Shown one piece after another: positions 3,154 through 30,829 of a DNA stretch of 64,000 nucleotides. A program made the position numbers and the translations under genes. The DNA lies in the NCBI GenBank assembly GCA_964472415.1, contig CAYYLC010000001.1, forward strand, positions 131,269-195,268, read 5' to 3'. How positions within the stretch are numbered: the first letter of the stretch is position 1; every line of letters starts with the position of its first letter. The stretch is from an uncultured Gammaproteobacteria bacterium. GTDB lineage: Bacteria > Patescibacteriota > Microgenomatia > Levybacterales > GWA1-39-11. The notes under the pieces were generated by a model. The model was not told the DNA's origin, ran no database searches, and saw only the letters and a program-made list of their open reading frames with translations.

Positions 3154-6100
3154 TTAGTTAGCACCAGTCCAGTCTTTTGCCATAAGTTCTGCTTGTTCTA
3201 ATACAATTTTGGTTGCACCTTCCTGTTTGTCTGGTGGATATTTATATTTCACGAGTAATCTTTTAATGTAGATTCTCAGTTTTGCTTGAACGCTTTCTTT
3301 TATTGTCCAGTCAATTGATGTGTTCTTGCGAAGCATGTCAACCAGTTCTCGTGCCATTGCCTTGAGTGTTTCATCTCCAAGTTCACGCACTGCACTTTCA
3401 TTATTTGCCAGCGCATCATAGAAAGCGATTTCTTCAGGTGATAGCCCCATCTCATTGCCAATTTCTCTTTCATGCTGAATTTTCTTTGCCAGTTCCAGAA
3501 GTTCTGCTATAACTTGTGCTGCTTCGATTGTTCTGTTTTGGTATTTACGAATCGTTGCCTCTAGCATTTGTGCAAATGAACGAGATTTTACAAGATTTGT
3601 CTTTGTCATTGTTCTCAATTCATCATTTAATAGTTTTTTAAGAAGTTCTAATGCAACATTTTTATGCTGCATATTTTTTACTTCACTTAGAAATTCCTCT
3701 GAAAATATTGAGATGTCAGGAGACTTAATTCCAGCAGCTGAATATATGTCTATCACAGCATCTGAAGTGACAGCAGAGGAGACTATTTGTCTTATTGCCA
3801 CATCATAGTCATCATCTGTTGGCCCGCCATCTTGTGGTTCCATTTTCATTATTGCACCACGCACTATCTGATAAAATCCAACCTCATCTCGTATTTCCAT
3901 TGCCTTGTCATGAGGCACTGCAAGTGAAAATGCTTTTGATAATTCATTCACAGCTCTCAAATATCGTTTCTTACCATCCTCAAGTCCTAGTATAAAGTTT
4001 GTCGCAGCAGATATCGCTTGAGTCCTCTCAGAAGCTTTACCATTGAAGTATTTCTGATAGTCAAAGCCATGATACATTCCTCGTACAATCTCATACTTTT
4101 CAAGCATTAGTGTAACCGCTTCATCCTGAGGAATTGCGGTTTCTGATCTATCAGATTCGGAATAGTAGGAAAGTGCTTCTTTAAGCTCTGGTGCAATTCC
4201 AATGTAGTCAACAATAAGTCCACCTTGCTTGTCCTTATAAACACGATTAACACGAGCAATGGCTTGCATCAGTCCATGTCCTTGCATTGGTTTATCTATG
4301 TACATTGTATGAAGCGAAGGCACATCAAAGCCTGTCAGCCACATATCACGGACAATAACCAGATTCAATTCATCATCTGGATCTCTCATTCTTCTTGCCA
4401 TTGCGTCCAGCTCGTGTTTTGATCTGATATGAGGCTGAAAATTCAGCGGATCAGTTGCACTTCCGGTCATAACTACTTTCAGGAATCCTTTTGTTTCATC
4501 ATCACTATGCCATTGTGGACGAAGTTTTATGATCTCGTTGTAAAGCTCAACGGCAATACGTCTGCTCATTGCAACTATCATGCCTTTTCCATCCATGACT
4601 GAAAGTCTGTTTTCAAAATGATCCACCAGGTCCCGCGCAACCAGTGCTATTCTTTTTTCAGATCCTACCATTGCTTCAAGTCTGGCCCACCTACTCTTTA
4701 GTTTTTCTTTCTTTTCAATTTCTTCACCTTCTGTTAACTCTTCAAATTCTGGATCAATTTTTGGTTGCTCTTCTTTTTTAAGCTCAATTCTGGCAAGTCT
4801 CGCCTCGTAATAAATCGACACAGTTGCGTGATCCTCAACAGCGCGGGTTATATCGTAGATATCGACATACTCGCCAAATACTGCTCTTGTGTTCCTGTCC
4901 GACAGTTCAACAGGTGTGCCTGTAAAACCAATAAATGACGCGTTCGGAAGCGCATCTCTCATGTGTTTTGCAAATCCACTGATAAATTCATACTGACTTC
5001 GATGTGCCTCATCGGCAATGACAACAATATTTTTTCTGTCAGATAACATCGGATAGTCCTGCTCCCCATGAACAGGTAAGAATTTTTGTATGGTTGTGAA
5101 TATTACGCCACCTGAGGCAACTTTTAGAAGCTCTTGTAATTCATTTCTGTCATCTGCTTGTTTTGGTGTTTGTCGTAAGAGATCAGAGCTCTTTGAAAAT
5201 ATTCCAAACAATTGATTATCAAGATCATTTCTGTCAGTCAGTATGACAAGAGTAGGATTGTTAAGTTCTTGAATGATTTTTCCTGCAAAAAATGTCATAG
5301 TGAGACTTTTGCCAGAACCTTGAGTGTGCCAGACGACACCAGCACGTCTATCTCCTTCTTCTAGCGTGGCTTTTATAGTACTTTCTACCGCTTTGTTAGT
5401 GGCAAAGTATTGATGATAAGCAGCAGCTTTTTTAATTGTCTTTTCGCCATCAGTTTCAAACACGATGAAATTGGAAATAATGTCGAGTAATCGTGACTTA
5501 TCAAAGATTCCTTTTAACAGAACTTCAAGCTGAGGCAAAGCATTGGAAGCAATATCAATGCCATTGAGTGTTCGCCATCTCGTGAACCATTCAAGATTTG
5601 CAGACAAAGTACCAACTCGTGCTTCATTTCCATCACTAATGATTGAAAGTTCGTTATAGGCAAAAAGTGATGGAATATCTTGCTTGTACGTTTGGATTTG
5701 ATTAAATGCTCCTCTGACAGTTGCTTTTTCGTCTCCTGGATTTTTCAGTTCTATGACTATGACAGGTAATCCATTGACGAATACGACAACATCAGGACGT
5801 CTGTTATTGTTATTTTCAATGATGGTGTATTGGTTAACTGCCAGAAAGTCATTCTCGTCAATATTCACAAGGTCCACAAGCTTTACTTTGTCACCAGCGA
5901 CAGTTCCATCACTTCGCATATACTCTACATCCACGCCATCTCGCAGATATGAATGAAAGATTCTATTATTTAGGATTGCACTTGGAGTGATGAATGGAAC
6001 CTGCAGAACTTTCTTAAATGCTTCTTCTTTTGCGTCCATAGGAATATCAGAATTGAATTTCTCAATCGCATTCCAAAGTCTTTCCTCTAGTACTACATCA

Positions 6101-6234
6101 GCATAAGATTTTCGCTCAGGACTCACTCCGTCTGGTGGTGGTGCAATCTCAGGCCCACCAATAACAGAATAGCCTAATTCCTCAAGCCATTCTAAAGTCG
6201 CTAATTCTAAATCTGTTTCTGTGTATTTATTCAT
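3154..6234 (-). CDS. hsdR: Type I restriction enzyme R subunit (endonuclease/helicase)
   Basis: 1026 aa; Walker [13 protein letters not shown]; DEAH box [10 protein letters not shown]; typical HsdR N-terminus [22 protein letters not shown]. Confidence 0.95.
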
Positions 6235-7210
6235 GTTTATTTATCTGTGCTTTGATTAATTCAAAACAGTCATTGTTGTATAAAACAGGAATAGCGGAGC
6301 CTCCACGTTTTGTTCTTTTATATTCTCTTTCTTGTCTTTGACTTCTGAAATTGTATGCAGAATACTTCTCATCACCTTTTAGATTGTGTTTTTTGATAAT
6401 CTTGTTTAGATCATTTTGTTTGAATTTAGGAACCTCTTTTTTTAACTTGTCTCTAAGATCAGTCCATGTATATGGATATAAGTCTGTCACATTTTTACGT
6501 TCTATGATTGCAATAGCAGCATCTTTTGCTTCTTTATCCACTATTATTCTTGGAGCTTTTACTTCAGCGATTCGTTTTGCAGACACGATTTCGGCTTTGA
6601 TTTCGCACACTAGATAAAATCCTTCATTCTCTACTTGATTGTTCTTTTGCCTTTCAGAAATGTCTAGAATGATATTTTTAATCACACTAGGTTCATTGTC
6701 TATTGCAAGTGTCGTAAATGTCTTGAAGTTATAAGCAAAACCTAGTGGCAGAATGTTGAAGTTATAAGTTTTACTAAAATCTAAATTAAACCATTCTTTG
6801 ACTAATTTATTAAAATTTCTTAAAGATGCAGCACCAAGCGAATATACAAGATAAGACGTAGAGTCGTTATTATAAAAATGTATAGCAGTGTCTCTAATAT
6901 CAACCAACCTGTCTAGATTTTCTTCGAGAATATTATTTAGTTCGAGTTTCTTAAGTGCACCCATAATATCTACAGTATATGGAGTTTTCGCACGATTCTT
7001 TTTAATATATCTTCCTTCATATACATAAATTGCATTTGGATTTTTAGAATCCATTAGTATTTTTGCTTTTAATAATAGCTCCCATGCATTGATAAGTAAG
7101 ATTACAAATACTTCCTCTCTATACTTAAAATCTGGTTTATTGTAGATTTCAATCGAAGACAATGCTGCAGCGACTGACTTATCAAGTAAATTTTTGTATA
7201 TTGCTCTCAT
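6227..7210 (-). CDS. Hypothetical protein embedded between hsdS and hsdR; candidate HEPN-like nuclease (Rx4H motif); no P-loop
   Basis: 327 aa; overlaps hsdR start by 8 nt and ends 2 nt before the hsdS stop; motif IRDTAIH (R106..H111, nt 6878-6895); no Walker A; same position as PrrC in prr loci. Confidence 0.55.
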
Positions 7211-7211
7211 A

Positions 7212-8570
7212 TTAATTGACTCTTATCCTCCCACTCATAAGTCTTGGTAAAAGTGAATCTCTGATTTCGCTAAGCACATATACCTCTTTTTGGTTTGAAA
7301 TATACTTTTCCATTAAATTCACGATTAGTTTTTCAAAGCTTTTAAGGATATTATTTCCGGGTAGCAGAATCGAAACACTCTCTAAAATATCTGGACTAAT
7401 ATTTGGCTGAGCACTACCATATGCTTTTTCAACTATTGATTTTTGTATGTCACCGCTTCTTAGTAGGAAATATAAATACCAATGGTAATTTGAATTCTTT
7501 AGAAAATACTTTCCGACTCTTTGATTTAAAACTAACTCATAGTCACCTTTTACAAGGATGCCAATTTTTCCTGTTGTATTACCTGACATGGCAATCAAAA
7601 TATCTCCAGAATTCAAGATGAACTGTCTTGTCCTGTCTTTTACCTCCTCTTCAGAAACAAACTGAATATCCGTTACATCAACATCTGGATCAATAATATT
7701 TTTAATTTTGATTACGCCATATTTTCCAGAATCTTTAAAAGAAGAACCTTTAAAAGCAAATCCTGACTTTAGAGTTGCTATTTCTCTTACCCGTGAAGCT
7801 TCCCATCCTTTTGGAATCTCGCCTAATTCACTTTCCACCATCTCACCACCACTGGATTTGTACGGTTTGCCATTTTCGTTTGGAAATTCGAAATCCACAA
7901 ACCATCTTTTGAATAGTGTCTTGCCGATTTCCTCAAGCGTCTTATTCATCCTACGGTTTAATTCAATCTTGTCATCAAGCGAGGAGAGAATTGAGGCGAT
8001 TTGTTGTTGTTCACCAATTGGTGGATACTTGACCCAAGATTCCTTTATAGCCTCAGTTGTCAAATTCACTTGAACTCCACTTCGTGCTGTAGTTCTTAGC
8101 CTTTCGATATAACTTCTGGAATTCAGATAATAGTATAGATATGCACTGTCTACATTTGAGTTAGGACGAATTCTGCCGACGCGTTGGTTAACTAAAAATT
8201 TTTCATTATTAATTCTTGCAGAGTGACCTAACAAGTTCATGCTCGACTTCATGTCTGTCATACACATGAGGATATCATCCTTATCGGTTATGTAGCTTGC
8301 AAGCTTTCTAGCCAGGCTCTGATCCGCATAATCCTCTTTTCCTGTTATTTTAATTCCACCTCCTATATCAATGTTCCCCATCTTGAAGACTGGCACAGCA
8401 TTCTCAGATTTCTCAGTGTACGAACGACTACTAAACGCATATCCATTTGAAAAATCGGCTAACTCTTTTAGCTGCCTTAAATTCCAATCCTCTGGAATTT
8501 CACCAATTTCTGTTTGCCTGTCCGCCGTAGCTTTAGCGTTGGAGGGTTTGTATTGTGTATCGGATTTCAT
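7212..8570 (-). CDS. hsdS: Type I restriction-modification specificity subunit with two target-recognition domains
   Basis: 452 aa; central conserved coiled region PPIGEQQQIASILSSLDDKIELNRRMNKTLEEIGKTLFKRWFVDFEFP and C-terminal LLPRLMSGRIRV. Confidence 0.93.
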   Translation of the reverse strand: MKSDTQYKPSNAKATADRQTEIGEIPEDWNLRQLKELADFSNGYAFSSRSYTEKSENAVPVFKMGNIDIGGGIKITGKEDYADQSLARKLASYITDKDDILMCMTDMKSSMNLLGHSARINNEKFLVNQRVGRIRPNSNVDSAYLYYYLNSRSYIERLRTTARSGVQVNLTTEAIKESWVKYPPIGEQQQIASILSSLDDKIELNRRMNKTLEEIGKTLFKRWFVDFEFPNENGKPYKSSGGEMVESELGEIPKGWEASRVREIATLKSGFAFKGSSFKDSGKYGVIKIKNIIDPDVDVTDIQFVSEEEVKDRTRQFILNSGDILIAMSGNTTGKIGILVKGDYELVLNQRVGKYFLKNSNYHWYLYFLLRSGDIQKSIVEKAYGSAQPNISPDILESVSILLPGNNILKSFEKLIVNLMEKYISNQKEVYVLSEIRDSLLPRLMSGRIRVN

Positions 8571-8573
8571 AGC

Positions 8574-9410
8574 TTATGACTTAAGCTGTTTAACTTTATG
8601 GATTTGGCTCAAAGACTTCATTTGGGAGATGGCAACTTTGTTGAGCTGAAGTAGTCGCTCGCTTTGCTCCAGTCCCAGTTTAATAAGCTCTGCATTGAGT
8701 GACTCGAGATTGGTGAGACAAACTAGCTGGGCGGCGTTAGCGTAGTCTCGGACGTTACCTGGCTTTTTGGGGTTGGCGCTTCGCCACTCTTTGGCTGTCA
8801 TACCAAACAAGGCCTTATTGAGAACATCTGCTTCACTGGCATACAAGGCATTTGCTTGTGACTTAGATATTTTTGGAGGTATAAGAAATTCTTTGACAGC
8901 ATCGGTGTGAATACGATAGTTGATGGCCGCCAAATTGCGCTTCAGATCCCATCCTAGTTTTTCCCGCTCAATCTCTTCTTCTTTAAGCCGCTGAAATTCC
9001 TTGATCAAGAATAGTTTGAACTCTGCACTAATCCAGCTGGCAAATTCAAATGCGATGTCAGTGTGGGCAAAAACACCTCCACCATATCGACCAGGTTTCA
9101 TAATCAAACCAACAGCCTGAGTTGCTTCTATCCATCGTTTAGGAGTCAAAGAAAAGCTATTTGAACCCGCCTCGTTTTTAAAGGCGTCGAATTCGACGCC
9201 TTTAAACTCGGCGTTGTTAATACTCTCCCACAGTCCAAGAAATTCGATAGTGCTTCTATTTCTCAACCAATTTTGGATGATGTAATTCGTTCGCTCACTG
9301 TCTTTATACTTAGCAATATCTGTCAATGAAATAAAATCAGCATTTTCCAAAGTGCGAGTGGTAATTTCAATTCCCTTTACAATTATTTGCCTTGATTTTT
9401 GTTTCTTCAT
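8574..9410 (-). CDS. KilA-N (APSES-type) DNA-binding domain protein inserted between hsdM and hsdS
   Basis: 278 aa; ..[30 protein letters not shown].. resembles the KilA-N/ORF6N signature (GTWVHPDLA..FA.WLSP.F); C-terminal half is coiled-coil-like; start overlaps hsdM stop by 4 nt. Confidence 0.65.
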
Positions 9411-10945
9411 ACCTCAAATCCAACTTTTTTTAAATTCTCTTTAATTTTTTCTTCAAGCTCTTTTGACTCTATGAATTGTGCTGATAATTCGCTGGTCAGT
9501 CTTGCCATTTTCTCCTCAAATACTTCGTCATCTTCCATCTCAAAATCCGTGCCAACATATCTACCAGGAGTGAGGACATAGCTGTTCTTCTCTACTTCTT
9601 CAATACTTGCGGCTTTACAAAAGCCCTTCACATCTTCGTAATTCCCATCTTTGTTTCGCCAGTTGTGGTAAGTGTCTGAAATCCTTTGTAGTTCTTCATC
9701 AGTCAGTTCTCTGTGTCTTCTATCTATCATTGTTCCCATATTGCGAGCATCAATAAAAAGAATTTCGTTATGTCTGTCTCGGAATTTGTGATTATGTCTA
9801 TCTCGTGAGACAAACCATAGAGAGGCTGGAATACCAGTAGTGTAAAAGAGCTTATCTGGAAGTGCCACGATGCAATCCACAAGTCCTGCTTTTATGATTG
9901 CTTCTCTAATGATTCCCTCATTGGAAGTGTTAGAGGATAAAGCACCGTTTGCCATAACGAATCCTGCAATACCAGTAGGTGATAAATGATGGATGAAATG
10001 CTGAATCCAGGCATAGTTGGCATTGCCTGTTGGAGGCACACCATATTTCCAGCGGACATCATCGCGGAGTCTCTCACCGCCCCAGTCGCTCATATTAAAT
10101 GGAGGATTGGCGAGAATAAAATCTGCTTTTAAGTCTTTATGAAGATCATTATGAAAACTGTCTCCTTCAGATTCGCCTAAATTTCCTTCAATTCCACGAA
10201 TTGCCAGATTCATTTTGGCAAGTCTCCAAGTAGTGGCATTGCTTTCCTGTCCATATACTGCAATGTCACTAACTTTTCCGCCATGTTCTTCCACAAACTT
10301 TTCACTTTGGACAAACATCCCACCACTTCCGCAACAAGGATCGTAAACTCTTCCTTGAAATGGCTCTATCATAGTAACAAGGAGTTTTACTACTGAAGCT
10401 GGTGTATAGAATTCACCGCCGCCTTTTCCTTCTGCACTAGCAAATCTTCCAATGAAGTATTCATAGACACGTCCAAGAATATCTTTTGACTTTGAGGCTT
10501 TGTCTCCAAGTCCAAGTGAGCTGAAAATATCAACTATTTCACCGAGTCTTTGTTTATTAAGATCTGGCCGTGCATAACGTTTAGGAAGAACACCTTTTAG
10601 AGTAGGATTCTCTTTTTCAATTGCTATCATTGCGTCATCAATGATTTTGCCTATTTCAGGCTTCTTGGCATTTTCTTTGAGATAATCCCATCTCGCATTC
10701 TCCGGTACCCAAAATATATTTCTTGCTTTGTATGCGTCCTTATCCTCCCATTCACCATTAAATGCTTCTGGATCATTTTTGATTGACTGGTACGTTTCTT
10801 CAAAAGAGTCGGAGATATATTTGAGGAAAATAAGTCCTAGTACAACATGTTTATATTCAGCAGAATCCATGTGTCCACGAAGTTTGTCCGCAGCAGCCCA
10901 TAATTTCGCTTCAAAACCTATATTTGCAGAACTGTTTTTTGCCAT
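9407..10945 (-). CDS. hsdM: Type I restriction-modification N6-adenine DNA methyltransferase subunit
   Basis: 512 aa; HsdM_N-like N-terminus ([35 protein letters not shown]); catalytic ILANPPFN motif. Confidence 0.95.
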
Positions 10946-10969
10946 AATGTTTTTAATTCTCTTTGGTGC

Positions 10970-11164
10970 TTATTTTTTGTTTCGTGACAAATAAGCTTCA
11001 ATATCACTCTTGCGGTATCGTCTGTCACCAACACCTTTTCGAGTGCCAACACGAACGGCTTTCAGAATTTCGTTCTTATCCCAGCGCCATAAAGTTTGAA
11101 CATTTACATTCAAGATCCGTGCTGCCTCTTGGATAGATATCAGCTCTTCAAGCGCTGAATTCAT
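10970..11164 (-). CDS. Small helix-turn-helix DNA-binding protein (excisionase/MerR-like HTH_17 family), first gene upstream of hsdM
   Basis: MNSALEELISIQEAARILNVNVQTLWRWDKNEILKAVRVG..: classic excisionase-family HTH; ORF opens at 11200 but Met at 11164 fits. Confidence 0.65.
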   Translation of the reverse strand: MNSALEELISIQEAARILNVNVQTLWRWDKNEILKAVRVGTRKGVGDRRYRKSDIEAYLSRNKK

Positions 11165-11432
11165 ATTAGTTGAGCTTAATTTTACTAAATTGAGGATCAA
11201 AACACCAGATAAGATGAGTTTTCATCATTCATGATAAGTTAGGCTATTATTCTTTCCAAAATAAAGATTTTTTAATAACAAAAGACTCAAGTAATACTTA
11301 TTAGGTACAAATCAAAAAAGACAAGAGAAAGCAAAGAAGGAGATCGAGGACATTGTATTTGCGTTAGAACCGAAAGAATTGGCTGTTATATCAAGCAATT
11401 TAGTGTCTTACGAGCCTATCAGTTCTGCTTTG

Positions 11433-11503
11433 CTGCCGAGCAGGGATTCGAACCCCAATAAACGGATCCAGAATCCGTTGTCCTACCATTAGACGACTCG
11501 GCA
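11433..11503 (-). tRNA. tRNA-Gln (anticodon CUG)
   Basis: Reverse complement folds as a cloverleaf: acceptor UGCCGAG/CUCGGCA (U1-A72, discriminator G73, as in bacterial tRNA-Gln); D-arm GUCU..GGAC; anticodon stem ACGGA/UCCGU with loop UUCUGGA; T-loop UUCGAAU; CCA not encoded. Confidence 0.85.
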
Positions 11504-11624: not shown

Positions 11625-13836
<2,212 letters not shown>

Positions 13837-18163: not shown

Positions 18164-21100
18164 TTAGTTTATAATCCACCAGTTGAAGAATATTTCTTCT
18201 TCTCCTGCTTTTTCTACTTCAACTTTGAAGTATTCTTGATCCTTTTGCTCTGTAACTGCCAGTACTCCTTCATAGAGAGTTTTAGGAGTGATAAATATAT
18301 TTGATTTTTCTGTGACTGCTTTTGTGTTTATTATTGCAGCAGATTCTCCTTCTGGAATTTTCCCAACTCCTAATGAGGCATTTTCTTCATCTGTCGTTTC
18401 AATTTCGATCTTTTGTGCCTTAAGGGTGCCTTTTGTAACAATATCCCCATTTTCATTCAGGGTAATAGCTCCTTTAAAAAATTCTACGTTCTCTTGGCTT
18501 TCAGATTGTAGTTGAAGCGGTTTGTCGATTGTGTTTATGCTGTTTTCTGCAGCATTTATAATGATGGAGCCGATTTGGAGCGATTCAGTAAGCGTAATAG
18601 TGTCAAGCTGTAATCCTTTAATTTTTGTAAATATTTGAGAGCTGTCAGATGCTATTTCAAATTCTGAATCCAGGATTTGATTCAAAATCTCGTTTTGATC
18701 CTCTAATTTGTTGAGTTTTTCCTCGATGAGAGTAACGCGCGACTCAATGCCTGTAGTGCTATTTATGGTTTTTGTTTCGAGATCTTCAAATGCATTTCCA
18801 AGCTTTGTTAATGGCAGGATAGGAGTGTTATTTCCTGCAAGATGCGTGTTGTTGTTTGGTATAAGATTGCCTGCTTGATCTATTTTTAGGGTAGAGTACC
18901 ATCCGGCATTTGCAAAAATCGTAATTGTACCAATTTCAGATTCTGAGTATCCTTCAAGTGCTCGTCCAACTATATATGTTGAGGAAGTTGCTTTTACTGC
19001 AACTCCAGGTGTTTCTCCGATCGTCAAAGGGTCGCCAGTTTTAATTTCTCCATTTGCGGTGCTTACTTTTGTTGGGACTCGTCCACTCAGGGCAACCGGA
19101 TAAATATATTTATGGATAGAGTCTGTTTCTGCTTCTGAGTTTAGCGTCACGCCAGGTTTTGTAGATATAACTCCAAGTAGTGTGCTTGATCCATCCCTTG
19201 CTTTTACTATTGCCTGTGAATTTCCATTATCTGCCATACTTACAACATCTCCTGGTTGGAGGGCTTGTGATGATACATAGTTTTCTGCAAGGTCAGCTCC
19301 TGTGACTACAGTATTTTCAGTATAGATAGTCCCCGTAGCATTTAAGGCGCAGATACCAGTTTCGGTGACACATAAGCTTCCGGCAATACTTAGCGTATTA
19401 TTGGCAGATGTAGGAGTCGAGAGGTTAATTCCAACCATTTTTTCTGAAAAATCACCCCAAATCAGTGGGCTTCCGGCAGTATTCGCGATATATAATTGGT
19501 CTGAGAACGTGGCTGAACTTGATGCTCCGGCATTGGGTCCTATAAAGATGTTCCCTGATCCTCCTGCCAAATGATACCCGGCGTTATACCCTACTGCGAC
19601 ATTAGAGTCACCGTCTACGTTTGATGCGAGCGCATTTGCTCCAAAAGCACTATTGCTCGCGGCAGTTGAACCGCTGAGCAGAGCATTCGCTCCGAATCCG
19701 GCATTATTGATTCCGGATTCGTTCAAACTTCCTACAGAATATCCGACAAATGTATTAAACAATCCGCTTCCTCCTGCTCTCATCTCGAAGGGAGATGCAC
19801 CACCATCACTGCTCTCCAACACGAAACCTGCATTTGATGGTGTAGGTGGTGGCGGAGGGGGTGGTTCAGGGGTAATCGATGTTGAAGTAACTCGGACATT
19901 TGTTATCTCAACCTTGAATTGTCCTCCTGCTAGAGATGAGATACCCAGACTTAGGCTTGCAGCTCCTGAAGGGGTTATCGGCATAGGATTCCCGAAAAAA
20001 TTAAGCGTACCATACGTACCAGGAGTATCGACACGGTCATCTAGACTAATGATTCTCGACGCATTTGGACCAAGTTGAATATTGATGCTACCTCTGTACT
20101 CAAGAGAAACCACTTCAAAGGTTACCGTATATGCGATACCTCCCTGTATGTAGTTTCCCATATATTGATTATCGAGCGTTGCTACTGCGCTAGTTCCGGT
20201 TGAAAAATGTAACCCATCAGCGATAGAGAGTCCTGATCCCAAATCCCAATTCCCTGTATTAGATGAAAAGTCGCTATCTGCAGGATTTGAAATTAAATTG
20301 TCATCAGGAGGGCCACCACCCCCCGGATCACTTGATGTAGGATAGCTTGAGCTTTCCTTTACTGTTAATATACCCTTTAATGAGCTCGTATTTATGCCAA
20401 CACCACCTCCAGAAACTTGCATCATATTATATCCACCTGCTTTAACAAGTAGGCTTGATGCTGCCTCAAAAGAAATGTCCTCATTATTAAGTGAAATGAA
20501 TTTCCCACTTGTTATGATTTGTCCACTTCCAGGACTGAGTACAATGTCTTCATCCGCGTCCAAGACTATATTTTCCCCTGAATCAAGAGTGATGCTATCA
20601 TCATTGACTGTCCGGATAGTTCCGCTTGAAGTGAGGGATAGCGTTCGTGTCGGAGATTGTCTTAGCCAGATTGTCGGATCACCTGAATTGATATTGGTAA
20701 TCGTAAACTTAGCATTGTTCACGGTTGATCCGCCTATTGCAAGGTTTTGCGTGGTATCTTTTGCGAATAAGAGAGTGCTTTGCGAATCCCATAAGCTGGC
20801 AGAGGGGTCGACCGGACACGAACCACTGCCTGTAACAATCCCTCCGCTCGTTGTGACGCAAGAATACCCTTCAACTGAAACTCCTGATAGTCCTTGATTT
20901 TGATAGACACCGCTTGCGAGATTCAAGTTTCCAGCACCGGTTAGCACCATTCTGCTCTGCCCAGAAGCTGACGCAGTAAGGATGTTTTTTAATGAATCAG
21001 TTTGATTTATAGATAATGCTGATGACCCTGTATCTCCGGAGATAGAAATGAACCCTGAAGGTGATGTTGTTCCGATACCGATAGCACTTCCTGAGTCATA

Positions 21101-23053
21101 GATAAGTGAGTTATTGAGAGATTGTCCGTTTGAACCAAATATTGGGAGGTAGTTATCTGTTCCATTGCTGATAACACCACCATCTTCACCGATACAATTA
21201 CCGCTTGAGTCACAAATGATCCTGTTTCCCCAATAGAGGCTTGAGCCGGGACCTGTGGTTGAAGCTGTTGTGTTTAGGATGTCTCCGGAACCTTCTCCTT
21301 CGCCGATTCGAATTGCACCGTGCACATCTAATACTACATCAGCAAGTGGTGATGATGTGCCGACTCCAACACTTGTTCCGTTATCGTAAATAAGCGAAGG
21401 GGTTAATATGCCAGGAGTATCATATTTCGGGATAAAATTTGCCGTTCCAAGACCGATTAATCCTCCTCCCGCAGTAGCGCAGTTTCCGGTTGTGAGACAG
21501 ATTGTGCCGGAGGCATCGGGAAATTGGTAACTTCTATTACCATTAAGCTCTTCCAGAGTAAGGTATGCCACGTTCTCAGAACCGGAACTAAATGTGAGCA
21601 TATTCTCAGAGGATGCAAGCTTGAGGCTTTCAAATGTGGGAGATGCGACAGTGTCAAGTATTTGTGGGAGTGTTAGGAGAATGTCACCAGTGAGCCCAGT
21701 TGGTGAGTATGAGCCATTCACGAGAATATGTCTCACGCCACCAGCAATTTTTGTTACACCGGTATTAGTTATCGTGAGTGAGTAAGGAGCTCGCGTAATA
21801 GAGAGCCCATTGCCAGTAGATAGACTTCTCGGTTCGTATTCTCCTGTTAAGCCACTCCCAATAAGAATTTGACCATCTGTTGGGATTTTGTCTGTACCTG
21901 TGCCCCCATATGAAGAAGATAGGATTCCTGATACGTGATTGCTGCTTGAGAGGTCGATTGGTCCACTAGTTAGTTTGTATCCCAGTGCTTGGACAATTCC
22001 ATTGCCTAATGAGGTAAGTTCGATTTCTCCTGATGCGCTAAAATCCGTTACTCCTTTTAAGGAGCCGTTGGCAGTTAAGTCAGCCCCATCAATTAATAGT
22101 GATTGAGTTCCTTTTGAAGTTAATATTACGCTCCCGGTACTTGTGCCGCCTACATAGAGATCTGTATCATTGAGAGCCTCGATTCTTCCGTTTGAATTTA
22201 GTGAAAGTGATTGTAGCGAATCTGTTGGATTTTCTAGAAGTATCTGTGAGAATTTTACGATTGCACCAGTGTCTATATTTTGTGGTAAGGAGAGTGAATA
22301 CACACTCCCAACTCTTTCTGCATATATTTGTTTATCAGTACCAACAATATGACTAATCATTCCGGTTCCAACATTACTGGAGATTGTAATGCTTTTTGTT
22401 ATTGGGTTTGATGATAGTGAAATTCCAGTTCCTGGTATAAAGGTAAGTGAATCATTATTGGAGCTTGCTGTGATGATTGGTCCGTCGGGAACGAGGATAT
22501 TTTTAAAAATACTCTGATCACCGAGTAGTTCATTTATTTCTTCAAGATTGACTATTGGGATAGTAAGATCTCCGGTTTCTCCATTTACAGAGAGTACTCC
22601 AGTATTGCTAATTTCAAGCGTATCATCACCTTCTATGGTAATACCAGGCCCGCCGATCAAAACACTCGTGAGTAATTCTGTATCAATCTGGAGGCCTTCA
22701 CTAATAAGGCCAAGATCTACGAGTTCCCCTCTATAATAAAGATCACCATTTAGGTTTGTATTTTGTTCAATAGTAACATCTGACTCAAATAATGTGGCAG
22801 CAGTGAAGTTGGTAGGTATGCTAAACGTTACACCTCCTGCAGTCTCTGAATCAGTTACTGCAAGAACCTCGCCTAAATTGCCAGGAGTTCTCGGTGGAGG
22901 ATTTTCTTCTGAATTGTTACCAGAAGTCCATTCAATGGCGAAGATGATTGTGACAGAGCTAAAAAGAAGGGCAATCCCAAGAAGGGCAATTTTAGAATAA
23001 AGCTTTATAAAGGAAAATGTTTTCATTTTCCTTGAATAATAATCTGGATCCAT
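18164..23053 (-). CDS. Giant (1629 aa) cell-surface or secreted protein: N-terminal signal anchor, long Gly/Thr/Ser/Asn-rich beta-repeat regions, polyproline linker, tail-fibre-like Gly/Ala/Asn repeats, C-terminal coiled coil
   Basis: N-terminus KMKTFSFIKLYSKIALLGIALLFSSVTIIFA; PEPPPPPPPTPS linker; NAGFGANALLSGSTAASNSAFGANALASNVDGDSNVAVGYNAGYHLAGGSGNIFIGPNAG; ends 8 nt upstream of the c-like gene on the same strand. Confidence 0.7.
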   Translation of the reverse strand: MDPDYYSRKMKTFSFIKLYSKIALLGIALLFSSVTIIFAIEWTSGNNSEENPPPRTPGNLGEVLAVTDSETAGGVTFSIPTNFTAATLFESDVTIEQNTNLNGDLYYRGELVDLGLISEGLQIDTELLTSVLIGGPGITIEGDDTLEISNTGVLSVNGETGDLTIPIVNLEEINELLGDQSIFKNILVPDGPIITASSNNDSLTFIPGTGISLSSNPITKSITISSNVGTGMISHIVGTDKQIYAERVGSVYSLSLPQNIDTGAIVKFSQILLENPTDSLQSLSLNSNGRIEALNDTDLYVGGTSTGSVILTSKGTQSLLIDGADLTANGSLKGVTDFSASGEIELTSLGNGIVQALGYKLTSGPIDLSSSNHVSGILSSSYGGTGTDKIPTDGQILIGSGLTGEYEPRSLSTGNGLSITRAPYSLTITNTGVTKIAGGVRHILVNGSYSPTGLTGDILLTLPQILDTVASPTFESLKLASSENMLTFSSGSENVAYLTLEELNGNRSYQFPDASGTICLTTGNCATAGGGLIGLGTANFIPKYDTPGILTPSLIYDNGTSVGVGTSSPLADVVLDVHGAIRIGEGEGSGDILNTTASTTGPGSSLYWGNRIICDSSGNCIGEDGGVISNGTDNYLPIFGSNGQSLNNSLIYDSGSAIGIGTTSPSGFISISGDTGSSALSINQTDSLKNILTASASGQSRMVLTGAGNLNLASGVYQNQGLSGVSVEGYSCVTTSGGIVTGSGSCPVDPSASLWDSQSTLLFAKDTTQNLAIGGSTVNNAKFTITNINSGDPTIWLRQSPTRTLSLTSSGTIRTVNDDSITLDSGENIVLDADEDIVLSPGSGQIITSGKFISLNNEDISFEAASSLLVKAGGYNMMQVSGGGVGINTSSLKGILTVKESSSYPTSSDPGGGGPPDDNLISNPADSDFSSNTGNWDLGSGLSIADGLHFSTGTSAVATLDNQYMGNYIQGGIAYTVTFEVVSLEYRGSINIQLGPNASRIISLDDRVDTPGTYGTLNFFGNPMPITPSGAASLSLGISSLAGGQFKVEITNVRVTSTSITPEPPPPPPPTPSNAGFVLESSDGGASPFEMRAGGSGLFNTFVGYSVGSLNESGINNAGFGANALLSGSTAASNSAFGANALASNVDGDSNVAVGYNAGYHLAGGSGNIFIGPNAGASSSATFSDQLYIANTAGSPLIWGDFSEKMVGINLSTPTSANNTLSIAGSLCVTETGICALNATGTIYTENTVVTGADLAENYVSSQALQPGDVVSMADNGNSQAIVKARDGSSTLLGVISTKPGVTLNSEAETDSIHKYIYPVALSGRVPTKVSTANGEIKTGDPLTIGETPGVAVKATSSTYIVGRALEGYSESEIGTITIFANAGWYSTLKIDQAGNLIPNNNTHLAGNNTPILPLTKLGNAFEDLETKTINSTTGIESRVTLIEEKLNKLEDQNEILNQILDSEFEIASDSSQIFTKIKGLQLDTITLTESLQIGSIIINAAENSINTIDKPLQLQSESQENVEFFKGAITLNENGDIVTKGTLKAQKIEIETTDEENASLGVGKIPEGESAAIINTKAVTEKSNIFITPKTLYEGVLAVTEQKDQEYFKVEVEKAGEEEIFFNWWIIN

Positions 23054-27270: not shown

Positions 27271-28428
27271 TTATCGTTTCGAATCTTTTTGACTCTGGAA
27301 GAGAAGATATAATTGGAGGCAGTAGAGAATTACTGCTCCATATAATGCGTGCGATCGAATAAGTACCGGAAATGCTTGAGGGTCTTTGAGGTTTATTGCT
27401 ATAAGTAAAAAACTAAGTGCAAGAATGGTAACATATTTCATATTAATTCTGTTTTGCTTTATGTAGAATAGTGTTGCAAGGAGGGGAATTATAGTCCAAA
27501 CATAATGATGTTGCCATGCTATTGAGTTAAAAATTAAGTTTAATATTATAAGGTTTGATATACACAAAAGCTCTAGGAAAGTGTCGGCATTTTTCTGTTT
27601 GAGAATAGCTATAATTGAGGTTGAGAATAAAATAATTCCACTAATAATTAGTATGAATCGGGTCAGAAGTGGATTATCTATAGCCCTGTTTAAAAACGCT
27701 GAAAACGACTGGTTATAATAAGCATCTGCCTGGGATCCTATAATTGATGGTAATGTTGTTTCAAAAAAATAGAAAAATGTTGTATGTCCTACATAAAAAT
27801 AAGAGATCGTATATAGTGCAATAATTGATAATATAATTGAGAAAATAATTTTCCATCGTTTGCTTCTTATTAAGAATGCAATTAGGAGAATTGGGAAGAT
27901 CTTCAGAGATAGGGCAATGGATAAAAATATCCCAGCTAATTCATCTTTTGTTTTTAAATAAAAGTATAAAAATAAAGTAATTAATAGTAATATGATGTTG
28001 TTAATTTGCCCCATTCCGAGAGTAAATTTTACGGGGAAAAAATTTAACAATAAAATAATAAGTACTAACCCAAAAATGTTTAATATGCGAATCTCAAATA
28101 TTTTGAATAATATTACTATCGAAGCAAAGAAGCATGTTATTGAAAAAAATGTAAACACATTTTCTGAAACACTATATGGAAATAGCGTGAATGGAGTAAA
28201 AAAAATTAGAGAAAAGGGAGGATATATGAAGGCCGCAAACATGCTCTCTGTAGTTATGTATGGGTTATCAGTATTTATTAAGTTTACAGTTCCGTAGTAA
28301 TACGTATTATAGTCAGGATAGAGATCGAGAGTTGCAGAGCGCAGGAAGACAGATAGCGATAATAAAACAGCTCCTAATAATAAAATCTTTATAAAGATTA
28401 CTCGAGAAGATTTCATAGAAGTAATCAT
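27271..28428 (-). CDS. GT87/DUF2029-like polytopic membrane glycosyltransferase (GT-C type)
   Basis: 385 aa, 10 or more TM helices; NTDNPY..YPPF..LFPY and LGMGQINNIILL motifs recall DUF2029 mannosyltransferases. Confidence 0.5.
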   Translation of the reverse strand: MITSMKSSRVIFIKILLLGAVLLSLSVFLRSATLDLYPDYNTYYYGTVNLINTDNPYITTESMFAAFIYPPFSLIFFTPFTLFPYSVSENVFTFFSITCFFASIVILFKIFEIRILNIFGLVLIILLLNFFPVKFTLGMGQINNIILLLITLFLYFYLKTKDELAGIFLSIALSLKIFPILLIAFLIRSKRWKIIFSIILSIIALYTISYFYVGHTTFFYFFETTLPSIIGSQADAYYNQSFSAFLNRAIDNPLLTRFILIISGIILFSTSIIAILKQKNADTFLELLCISNLIILNLIFNSIAWQHHYVWTIIPLLATLFYIKQNRINMKYVTILALSFLLIAINLKDPQAFPVLIRSHALYGAVILYCLQLYLLFQSQKDSKR

Positions 28429-29662: not shown

Positions 29663-30829
29663 ATGATACATAAAACCCTTTTCCCCTTGTGGCTCCTTGG
29701 GGGAATATTTTTGTTTTTATATTCATTTACGCAAGTTGATCTGTCGCTTACGTTCTCTCAAGCGTCTATTTTTCAGCAAGTCCAAAAATCATTCCAATAC
29801 ATTGGATGGTTTAACCGGCCACTTTCCGCGTATCTTTATATCGGAATAATTTTCTATTTATCTATTTTATTTATCATAACGCTTTTTGCAATTTCAAAAA
29901 ATAAAATATCTAAAAAATCATTGTGGTGGATTATTATTTTGGTCGCAGTTATTCTTACGCCTTCATATAATGCGTTTTCATATGATTTATTTAATTATAT
30001 TTTTGATGCGAGGATAGTATCGCATTATGGTCAGAATCCGTATGAGTTTCGTCCTCTAGATTTTGCAACAGATCCCATGCTTTCGTTTATGCGTTCAACA
30101 CATCGAGTATATCCGTATGGTCCAGTATGGCTTGGGATAACGGCACCGATAACATTTGTTTCCCATGAGATATTTGCGCTTAGCTTTGCACTATTTAAGA
30201 TCGTAGGAACATTAGCATTTCTCGGGACAGCGTTTTTTATCGGGAAATTGGCTGCTCATTTAAAAATGAAAAATACAAATTTTTCTATTGCGCTTTTCGC
30301 ATTGAATCCATTGATTTTAATTGAAGGATTAGTTTCTTCTCATAATGAGATCGTAATGATGTTTTTTGCAGTGATGTCTTTTTATTTTTTATTTACAAAA
30401 AGACATACATTCTCTCTTATGGGATTTTTTATATCAGTAGGGATAAAATATGCAACTTTTATTTTCCTTCCTATATATATTGCAAAATTATTTATAAAAA
30501 AACTTTCTGATAGGAGCTTGATGCAGTTTACGATTGCGTTGGGGATTCTTGCAGTTGTGATTACGTCTGTTGCGTCGGGACAAAATAAAAACCCTGAATT
30601 CCAGCCTTGGTATTTGTTGCTTGTTGCACCATTTATTTCATTCTCAGATAACAAATTTATAAAAAGTTTGCTTCTTGCAGTTTCTTTCGTGGTCCTGTTT
30701 TCATATGTACCATTTCTCTATAATGGAAGTTGGCCTGTGCAAATCGTTGCGATAAAAAATACCTTGGTCGTGATTGGGATTTTGATAGGAATTATTTTTT
30801 ACTATTTATATAAGACAAAGATAAAATGA
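29663..30829 (+). CDS. GT87/DUF2029-like polytopic membrane glycosyltransferase
   Basis: 388 aa; SYDLFNYIFDARIVSHYGQNPY ... YPYGPVW resembles DUF2029/PimE-like motifs; multi-TM. Confidence 0.5.
   Translation: MIHKTLFPLWLLGGIFLFLYSFTQVDLSLTFSQASIFQQVQKSFQYIGWFNRPLSAYLYIGIIFYLSILFIITLFAISKNKISKKSLWWIIILVAVILTPSYNAFSYDLFNYIFDARIVSHYGQNPYEFRPLDFATDPMLSFMRSTHRVYPYGPVWLGITAPITFVSHEIFALSFALFKIVGTLAFLGTAFFIGKLAAHLKMKNTNFSIALFALNPLILIEGLVSSHNEIVMMFFAVMSFYFLFTKRHTFSLMGFFISVGIKYATFIFLPIYIAKLFIKKLSDRSLMQFTIALGILAVVITSVASGQNKNPEFQPWYLLLVAPFISFSDNKFIKSLLLAVSFVVLFSYVPFLYNGSWPVQIVAIKNTLVVIGILIGIIFYYLYKTKIK

Follow-up and report, generated by a model that had tools for sequence, protein, structure and literature searches.

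A type I restriction-modification operon with two embedded phage defence candidates and a covarying palindrome in the KilA-N coding sequence

The type I operon and its two embedded genes

We analyzed a 64,000-nucleotide stretch of contig CAYYLC010000001.1 (positions 131,269 to 195,268), hereafter the window, in which a type I restriction-modification (R-M) operon encloses two additional genes, one encoding a KilA-N protein and the other a DUF3644 protein. The original prediction, made from the letters of this DNA and a list of its open reading frames (ORFs), had described a unit of six minus-strand genes and proposed that accessory defence modules were grafted onto a type I system. The ORF listing together with Pfam confirmed the six genes, their coordinates, and their order, and Pfam, NCBIfam, and PADLOC agree on the sequence HTH, hsdM, KilA-N, hsdS, DUF3644, and hsdR. 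The independently assembled contig L001 (L numbers denote the loci and contigs compared with the window) shows the same arrangement of these five genes, and the proteins are identical, which means that the layout is real and does not stem from an error of assembly or ORF calling.

The genes from hsdM to hsdR are packed closely. The end of hsdM overlaps the KilA-N gene by 4 nt (ATGA), 3 nt separate KilA-N from hsdS, 1 nt separates hsdS from DUF3644, and DUF3644 overlaps hsdR by 8 nt. The claim of gaps of 3 nt or less throughout the unit holds at these four junctions and fails at the first one, where 24 nt lie between the HTH gene and hsdM, leaving the HTH gene outside the overlap chain. Judging from the spacing, the last five genes are probably translationally coupled, and all six genes are probably carried on one transcript starting from a promoter upstream of the HTH gene. 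A consensus scan of the unit found 27 sigma-70-like sites, compared with 30.3 ± 5.8 in shuffled sequences, and terminator-like sites within the unit were not above the shuffle expectation. Promoters or terminators belonging to the inserts themselves were rejected because such consensus sites are not enriched over the shuffles. The candidate operon promoter consists of promoter-like sites with 9 of 12 matches at 11231-11275 on the minus strand, taken from a weak consensus scan with no enrichment over shuffles. Some 230 nt upstream of the HTH gene is a tRNA-Gln(CTG) gene (11432-11503, minus strand; ARAGORN; Rfam tRNA, 59.2 bits), and the promoter-like hexamers are located between the two.

The type I R-M system is complete, with HsdM, HsdS, and HsdR all recognized by their characteristic domains. 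The 512-residue N6-adenine methyltransferase HsdM (9407-10945, minus strand) contains HsdM_N (2.6e-28) and N6_Mtase (5.9e-110) domains and an NPPF motif at residue 280, and it matches PADLOC MTase_I at 1.5e-233. Its score of 189 against the TIGR00497 equivalog is under the cut-off of 242.75, and HsdM therefore belongs to a different type I subfamily. The specificity subunit HsdS (7212-8570, minus strand; 452 residues) possesses two target-recognition domains, seen as two stretches of Methylase_S (2.4e-39), and matches PADLOC Specificity_I at 2.7e-101. The restriction/translocase subunit HsdR (3154-6234, minus strand; 1026 residues) is composed of an N-terminal nuclease domain (HSDR_N, 8.5e-49), an SF2 helicase with a DEAH motif at residue 408 (SWI2_SNF2, 1.9e-81), and a HindI-like C-terminal domain (T1RH-like_C). 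It reaches 637 bits against TIGR00348, for which the cut-off is 284.55, and 1159.6 bits against PADLOC REase_I.

The small DNA-binding protein encoded at the head of the unit (10970-11164, minus strand) resembles HTH_17/MerR-excisionase proteins (Pfam HTH_17, 1.5e-11). It comprises 64 residues from its ATG, or 76 residues (10970-11200) from an alternative TTG start at 11200, and is presumed to be the operon regulator. In L122 (613-2322), an HTH domain with 40% identity to the window protein is fused to the N-terminus of HsdM, a hint that the small HTH protein may work together with the methyltransferase; this fusion was the one informative case for a conserved HTH-hsdM partnership among 160 loci. 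A small DNA-binding protein as the first ORF, combined with an embedded defence module, is also found in the RptR-controlled type I R-M locus of EPEC that carries DarTG2, a kind of locus marked by TAGCTA repeats in its promoter. The likeness is an analogy by description only, as the regulator in the window is HTH_17/excisionase-like and the cargo differs.

PADLOC also returned secondary matches to mad1 for the HTH protein (2.9e-10), to mad2 for HsdM, and to mad5 for HsdS, as if the locus were a methylation-associated defence (MADS) system or another non-canonical system and not a type I operon with passengers. We regard this as highly improbable. The NCBIfam cut-offs exclude a MADS-type system, as MADS2 reaches 48.7 of the 720 bits required and MADS5 72.8 of 400, no homologues of MAD3, 4, 6, 7, or 8 are present in the operon, and the type I models, including TIGR00348, which HsdR passes, score far above the MADS models.

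Both inserts match families of phage defence candidates (PDC) over their full length. The 278-residue KilA-N protein (8574-9410, minus strand; Pfam KilA-N, 2.1e-17), encoded between hsdM and hsdS, matches PADLOC PDC-S22 (PDLC04962) at 3.6e-128, with residues 3-277 aligned to positions 3-274 of a profile of 281. The 327-residue DUF3644 HEPN-domain protein (6227-7210, minus strand; Pfam DUF3644, 1.3e-44), a predicted RNase encoded between hsdS and hsdR, matches PDC-S19 (PDLC04954) at 3.6e-63, with residues 2-287 aligned to positions 2-298 of 330. Genes found embedded in type I RM, BREX, and DISARM systems were the basis on which the PDC families were established (Payne et al., 2024). PDC-S19 and PDC-S22 are catalogued as unvalidated candidates. 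The profile searches with Pfam and PADLOC that the original prediction had called for thus gave both inserted ORFs an identity, and the full-length matches support the proposed grafting of accessory defence modules onto the type I system.

The step from embedding to defence is the published "guilt-by-embedding" rule, and the pattern is already known. The operon is a further example of the rule that defence genes nest within R-M loci; its layout is ordinary and not surprising to specialists in itself. Its value is that of a natural test-bed, in which two candidate families, PDC-S19 and PDC-S22, share one compact and apparently co-translated unit. Among 158 loci, this contig and its identical copy were the only ones in which KilA-N and DUF3644 genes share an operon: a DUF3644 neighbor was absent from all 78 other KilA-N loci, and the reverse comparison likewise yielded none. 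The GC content at third codon positions is 0.43 for KilA-N, 0.24 for DUF3644, and 0.30-0.33 for the hsd genes, and this contrast suggests that the two inserts are of separate origin.

The DUF3644 passenger

DUF3644 has been assigned to the HEPN superfamily and occurs in R-M operons (Anantharaman et al., 2013). The window protein contains a single Rx4H motif, R106-D-T-A-I-H111, and its residues R106, D107, and H111 show no variation among 46 homologues with 40-80% identity. Against solved structures, the family profile gave weak matches to the HepT toxins 5yep and 6m6u that are centered exactly on this motif. The AF2 model (pLDDT 78) likewise found HepT toxins, 7bxo and 5yep, as the best meaningful Foldseek matches, with a target TM of 0.56-0.58 and a probability of up to 0.90 but without significant E-values.

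The neighborhoods of DUF3644 genes were examined in a sample of 78 metagenome loci, 50 of which have neighbors on both sides. At least 16 of these 50 fully informative loci carry type I genes within two genes of DUF3644, a lower bound obtained with single-sequence phmmer, and six metagenome loci show the exact order hsdS-DUF3644-hsdR. The other large neighbors sampled are defence proteins in 10 of 10 cases (SduA, HmaC, type IIG, PglX-like, REase_I, and Ppl). Close relatives of the operon also keep the gene. In L082, HsdR is 85% and DUF3644 90% identical to the window proteins, and the 8-nt overlap between DUF3644 and hsdR is preserved; in L083 and L084, the identities are 85% for HsdM, 84% for HsdR, and 81-83% for DUF3644. 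The DUF3644 gene directly precedes hsdR in L082 and L083, and L084 ends inside the DUF3644 gene. Since all three loci have kept it, DUF3644 stably accompanies the hsdR lineage to which the window operon belongs.

The closest known counterparts are PrrC and RloC, in which a gene for a HEPN-superfamily nuclease is likewise embedded in a type I hsd operon. PrrC is an anticodon nuclease residing in a type IC R-M locus and controlled by EcoprrI, the precedent for a guard. PrrC and RloC begin with an ABC-ATPase domain that bears a Walker A motif, whereas the 327-residue protein has neither according to the motif scan, Pfam, and PADLOC, and it belongs to another HEPN family, the DUF3644/EC042_2821-like proteins. 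The original prediction was right in stating that neither insert has a Walker A motif, as the motif scan confirmed, and that the locus is not a PrrC or RloC clone; what the proteins have in common is the HEPN superfamily.

From these sequence features, the DUF3644 protein is most likely a back-up RNase following PrrC-like logic without the ATPase, and by analogy, a back-up or guard role of the PrrC type is the most plausible one for the gene. The RNase would serve as a second-line effector of the abortive-infection type, acting either on its own or as a guard that is set free once the restriction complex is inhibited, as PrrC is with EcoprrI. Such a HEPN passenger would be a minimal parallel to the PrrC guard that does without an ATPase.

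A DUF3644 protein with a reported activity is HEC-08 from E. coli ECOR52, which protects E. coli from phage and loses its activity upon mutation of its motif histidine, H128. HEC-08 was found embedded in Hma, and its C-terminal domains are cysteine-rich zinc ribbons. As in the window protein, the N-terminal part of HEC-08 is a DUF3644 HEPN domain containing an Rx4-6H motif, and in the hhalign alignment, its R123 and H128 fall on the motif of the window protein, H128 on H111.

The KilA-N passenger and the palindrome in its coding sequence

The KilA-N protein consists of a KilA-N/APSES DNA-binding domain (residues 1-127), to which both sequence and fold match, a long helix (129-175), and a helical C-terminal domain (183-274) specific to the PDC-S22 family. 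The DNA-binding domain is known from phage P1 KilA, yeast Mbp1, and Bro proteins; the window protein differs from these by the family-specific C-terminal domain, which is only some 30% identical to the C-terminal region of certain "Rha family" proteins. Among solved structures, no relatives of the KilA-N protein were found by sequence.

The family is exceptionally widespread, with at least 8000 clusters among the matches listed, and its degree of conservation is unusual. Copies with 57-68% identity across bacterial phyla and archaea occur in at least 547 species genomes, from Bacteroidota, Firmicutes, Proteobacteria, and CPR lineages to Nanoarchaeota, Woesearchaeota, and Methanospirillum. Type I genes are adjacent in 11 of 78 sampled loci (about 14%), and within type I operons, the slot varies between M|S, as in the window, S|R, and S|M. 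Pfam searches of the immediate neighbors also revealed components of type III and type IIG systems, although housekeeping genes of diverse kinds make up most of these neighbors. Mobile elements are further hosts of the gene. In Staphylococcus phage EW (L162:4995-5828), a homologue with 61.5% identity lies between integrase and repressor, and Streptococcus satellites such as Javan588 (L163:4824-5840) carry one in the same position. A homologue on an Aeromonas plasmid (L164:6998-7825) is a Tn3 passenger beside the resolvase and transposase, and there are gene calls in which KilA-N is fused to a DDE transposase, MobL, or NikA. Around solo KilA-N genes, conserved flanking DNA that could mark cassette ends was not found beyond close relatives and the palindromes described below.

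The closest relative operon also speaks to the nature of the insert. In L084, an ORF for an 82-residue membrane protein (898-1146) occupies the M-S slot instead of KilA-N, and a gene for Shedu SduA (PADLOC, 4.9e-62; L084:2422-3585, L083:428-1591) lies between hsdS and DUF3644. The 82-residue ORF and the Shedu gene thus represent different embedded cargo in the same backbone; the close relatives differ in passengers only, the ORF replacing KilA-N and the Shedu gene being added. The original prediction had named the absence of the inserts from relatives, with the inserts carrying their own promoters, as a finding that would speak against it. Such an absence is what L084 shows for KilA-N, though KilA-N shows no sign of a promoter of its own, and DUF3644 is retained. 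KilA-N is thus promiscuous cargo that occupies the operon variably, not a type-I-specific accessory.

Taken as a whole, the locus is best read, and we consider this reading fairly probable, as an intact type I operon with two unrelated single-gene passengers at different junctions, the DUF3644 gene encoding a defence effector and the KilA-N gene a mobile DNA-binding protein. A type I operon beside tRNA-Gln would have acquired one passenger at the M-S junction and another at the S-R junction, the former from a widely transferred family of DNA-binding proteins that inserts at many places, R-M operons included. The role of the KilA-N protein in the cell may be defence, regulation, or selfish persistence.

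Several points weigh against this reading. About 86% of the sampled KilA-N copies are not beside type I genes, many of their neighbors being housekeeping genes, and the C-terminal domain of the KilA-N protein bears no resemblance to known effectors. The Foldseek E-values of the DUF3644 model to the HepT toxins are 0.2-0.4 and thus non-significant, giving weak support for the HEPN fold. The similarity to HEC-08 is confined to the motif region (hhalign E-value, 0.07), making HEC-08 a distant relative, and the window protein has only two cysteines and an α/β C-terminal half in place of the zinc ribbon; it is thus a member of PDC-S19 and not of HEC-08, in line with the absence of any HEC model among the PADLOC matches of the window proteins. 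DUF3644 homologues also adjoin Hma, type IIG, and other systems, and their presence therefore does not imply that the protein is physically and specifically coupled to the type I enzyme. We found no experimental test of PDC-S19 or PDC-S22 in the literature, and the common transcript is deduced from gene spacing only.

The KilA-N gene, whose family extends over thousands of genomes, holds an unexpected feature that we consider the more interesting outcome. Codons 69-78 (F69-KGVEFDAF-K78) form a perfect 30-nt palindrome (TTTAAAGGCGTCGAA/TTCGACGCCTTTAAA; 9177-9206), which a repeat scan found to be unique in the window, with 0 expected by chance. In 62 homologues, a mean of 14.0 of the 15 possible pairs are complementary and 21 palindromes are perfect, compared with 9.4 of 15 expected under a null model that keeps each peptide and the codon usage of each gene. 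The palindromes share a common design: TTTAA, 6-7 variable but complementary bases, a central GAATTC, the complement of the variable bases, and TTAAA. There is hardly any variation in the outer TTTAA or the central GAATTC. The inner bases vary yet remain complementary, and residues 70-72 therefore covary with residues 75-77. The stem variants include CCCGTC/GACGGG (residues PV..DG), CCTCTC/GAGAGG (PL..ER), CGCATC/GATGCG (RI..DA), CACATC/GATGTG (HI..DV), CTGGTC/GACCAG (LV..DQ), CGATTG/CAATCG (RL..QS), and TTTAAC/GTTAAA (FN..VK).

An alignment of 83 sequences has 95.4% of its cells paired, with two-sided changes at 7 of 13 pairs. Compensatory cells number 133, compared with 37 ± 7 in shuffles, and 0 of 500 shuffles reach the observed count, although the sequences are related and the events are not independent. 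The covariation score of the palindrome is 0.367, with slid controls at or below 0.136. Folded as RNA, the window palindrome reaches -28.3 kcal/mol (z-score -6.4). An Rfam scan yielded tRNA only and no family at the palindrome, and we found no literature linking KilA-N with a palindrome; it appears to be undescribed so far.

Palindromes of the same design also occur outside the coding sequence. In five loci, free-standing copies with no KilA-N coding sequence around them precede the gene by 6-130 nt (L007:9931-9960, L021:931-985, L028:9953-9982, L030:9936-9965, and L052:170-224), as tandem pairs in L021 and L052, and in two of these loci they reside in the hsdS-KilA-N gaps of type I operons.

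Because the freely varying inner bases are complementary, the sequence pattern favors an intrastrand hairpin of RNA or DNA over a simple duplex operator. Alternatively, a dimeric protein may co-evolve with its symmetric site. The palindrome is presumably a cis element recognized by the KilA-N protein or by the expression machinery, and it may act in autoregulation, processing, or recombination. Should it prove to function as a hairpin or an operator, it would clearly exemplify covariation of amino acids imposed by the structure of a nucleic acid, and it could account for the way in which defence cassettes of a single gene remain regulated or mobile at any site of insertion.

One use of such an element would lie within the operon itself: as a transcriptional regulator analogous to controller proteins, and not a defence effector, the KilA-N protein could bind the palindrome in its own gene and thereby tune hsdS, DUF3644, and hsdR relative to hsdM. 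We regard this as unlikely. A family with 57-79% identity across phyla that is found mostly outside R-M operons is unlike a dedicated hsd regulator, the closest relative operon works without KilA-N, and the operon already has an HTH gene. The complementary inner bases, moreover, point more to intrastrand pairing than to a duplex operator.

Truncated copies of the gene tend to break close to the palindrome. An N-terminal KilA-N fragment in L004 (10001-10222) ends at residue 74, a 77-residue gene of a Mannheimia phage (L168:2486-2716) stops three codons past its own palindrome, and a PHROG profile of 76 residues matches KilA-N residues 9-78. In L066 (11556-11782), an internally deleted copy joins residue 81 to residue 242. 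The positions of these breaks hint at palindrome-linked recombination or at a module boundary. In L004, L020 (629-1244), and L066, the intact copy is accompanied by ghost fragments of other KilA-N alleles, and a few copies are pseudogenised (L034, L046, and L049).

We tentatively propose, with somewhat less than even confidence, that the KilA-N gene is a self-contained mobile cassette carrying a cis element in its own coding sequence, an element kept in bacteria, archaea, phages, and satellites by compensatory changes, which would provide promoter-independent autoregulation or serve recombination and mobility. If this is true, it would explain how a single gene can drop in at any operon junction, type I R-M operons included, and why truncated and ghost copies break just past the palindrome.

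The same mobility could also serve the gene alone. One or both inserts might be selfish hitch-hikers without benefit for the host, shielded from deletion inside an addictive R-M operon, a prophage, or a transposon. The extreme horizontal spread of KilA-N and its neighbors from the mobilome, such as integrase and Tn3 transposase, are consistent with such a life, as are the few pseudogenised copies and the ghost fragments beside intact genes, which suggest repeated insertion or turnover. P1 KilA, the founding member, kills its host. However, KilA-N is under strong purifying selection from end to end, some 60 residues being invariant among 49 sequences, and in temperate phages its location between integrase and repressor fits a prophage-borne accessory or defence gene. 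For DUF3644, the uniformly defensive set of other neighbors and the invariant catalytic motif argue for function. We regard purely selfish inserts as unlikely, somewhat more so than the regulatory role of KilA-N, and we retain the reading of an intact operon with a defence effector and a mobile DNA-binding protein as its passengers.

Surroundings of the operon

The operon is flanked by housekeeping genes, namely those for ATP synthase, Ogt, and a tRNA-binding protein. A second copy of the tRNA-Gln 3' end was not found within the window, even with up to 3 mismatches allowed. A genomic island at tRNA-Gln is unsupported, there being no att-like repeat, no integrase, and housekeeping genes on the flanks.

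Some other ORFs of the window deserve mention. The ATP synthase beta ORF (12040-13830) comprises 596 residues, about 130 above the usual length, and ends with a low-complexity tail rich in Lys, Glu, and Asp. A minus-strand ORF of 1629 residues (18164-23053) has no Pfam match at E ≤ 0.001. A GT87-family glycosyltransferase is encoded on the minus strand at 27271-28428, and another one (29663-30829) belongs to a long plus-strand gene array at 28895-62917 that is unrelated to the operon.

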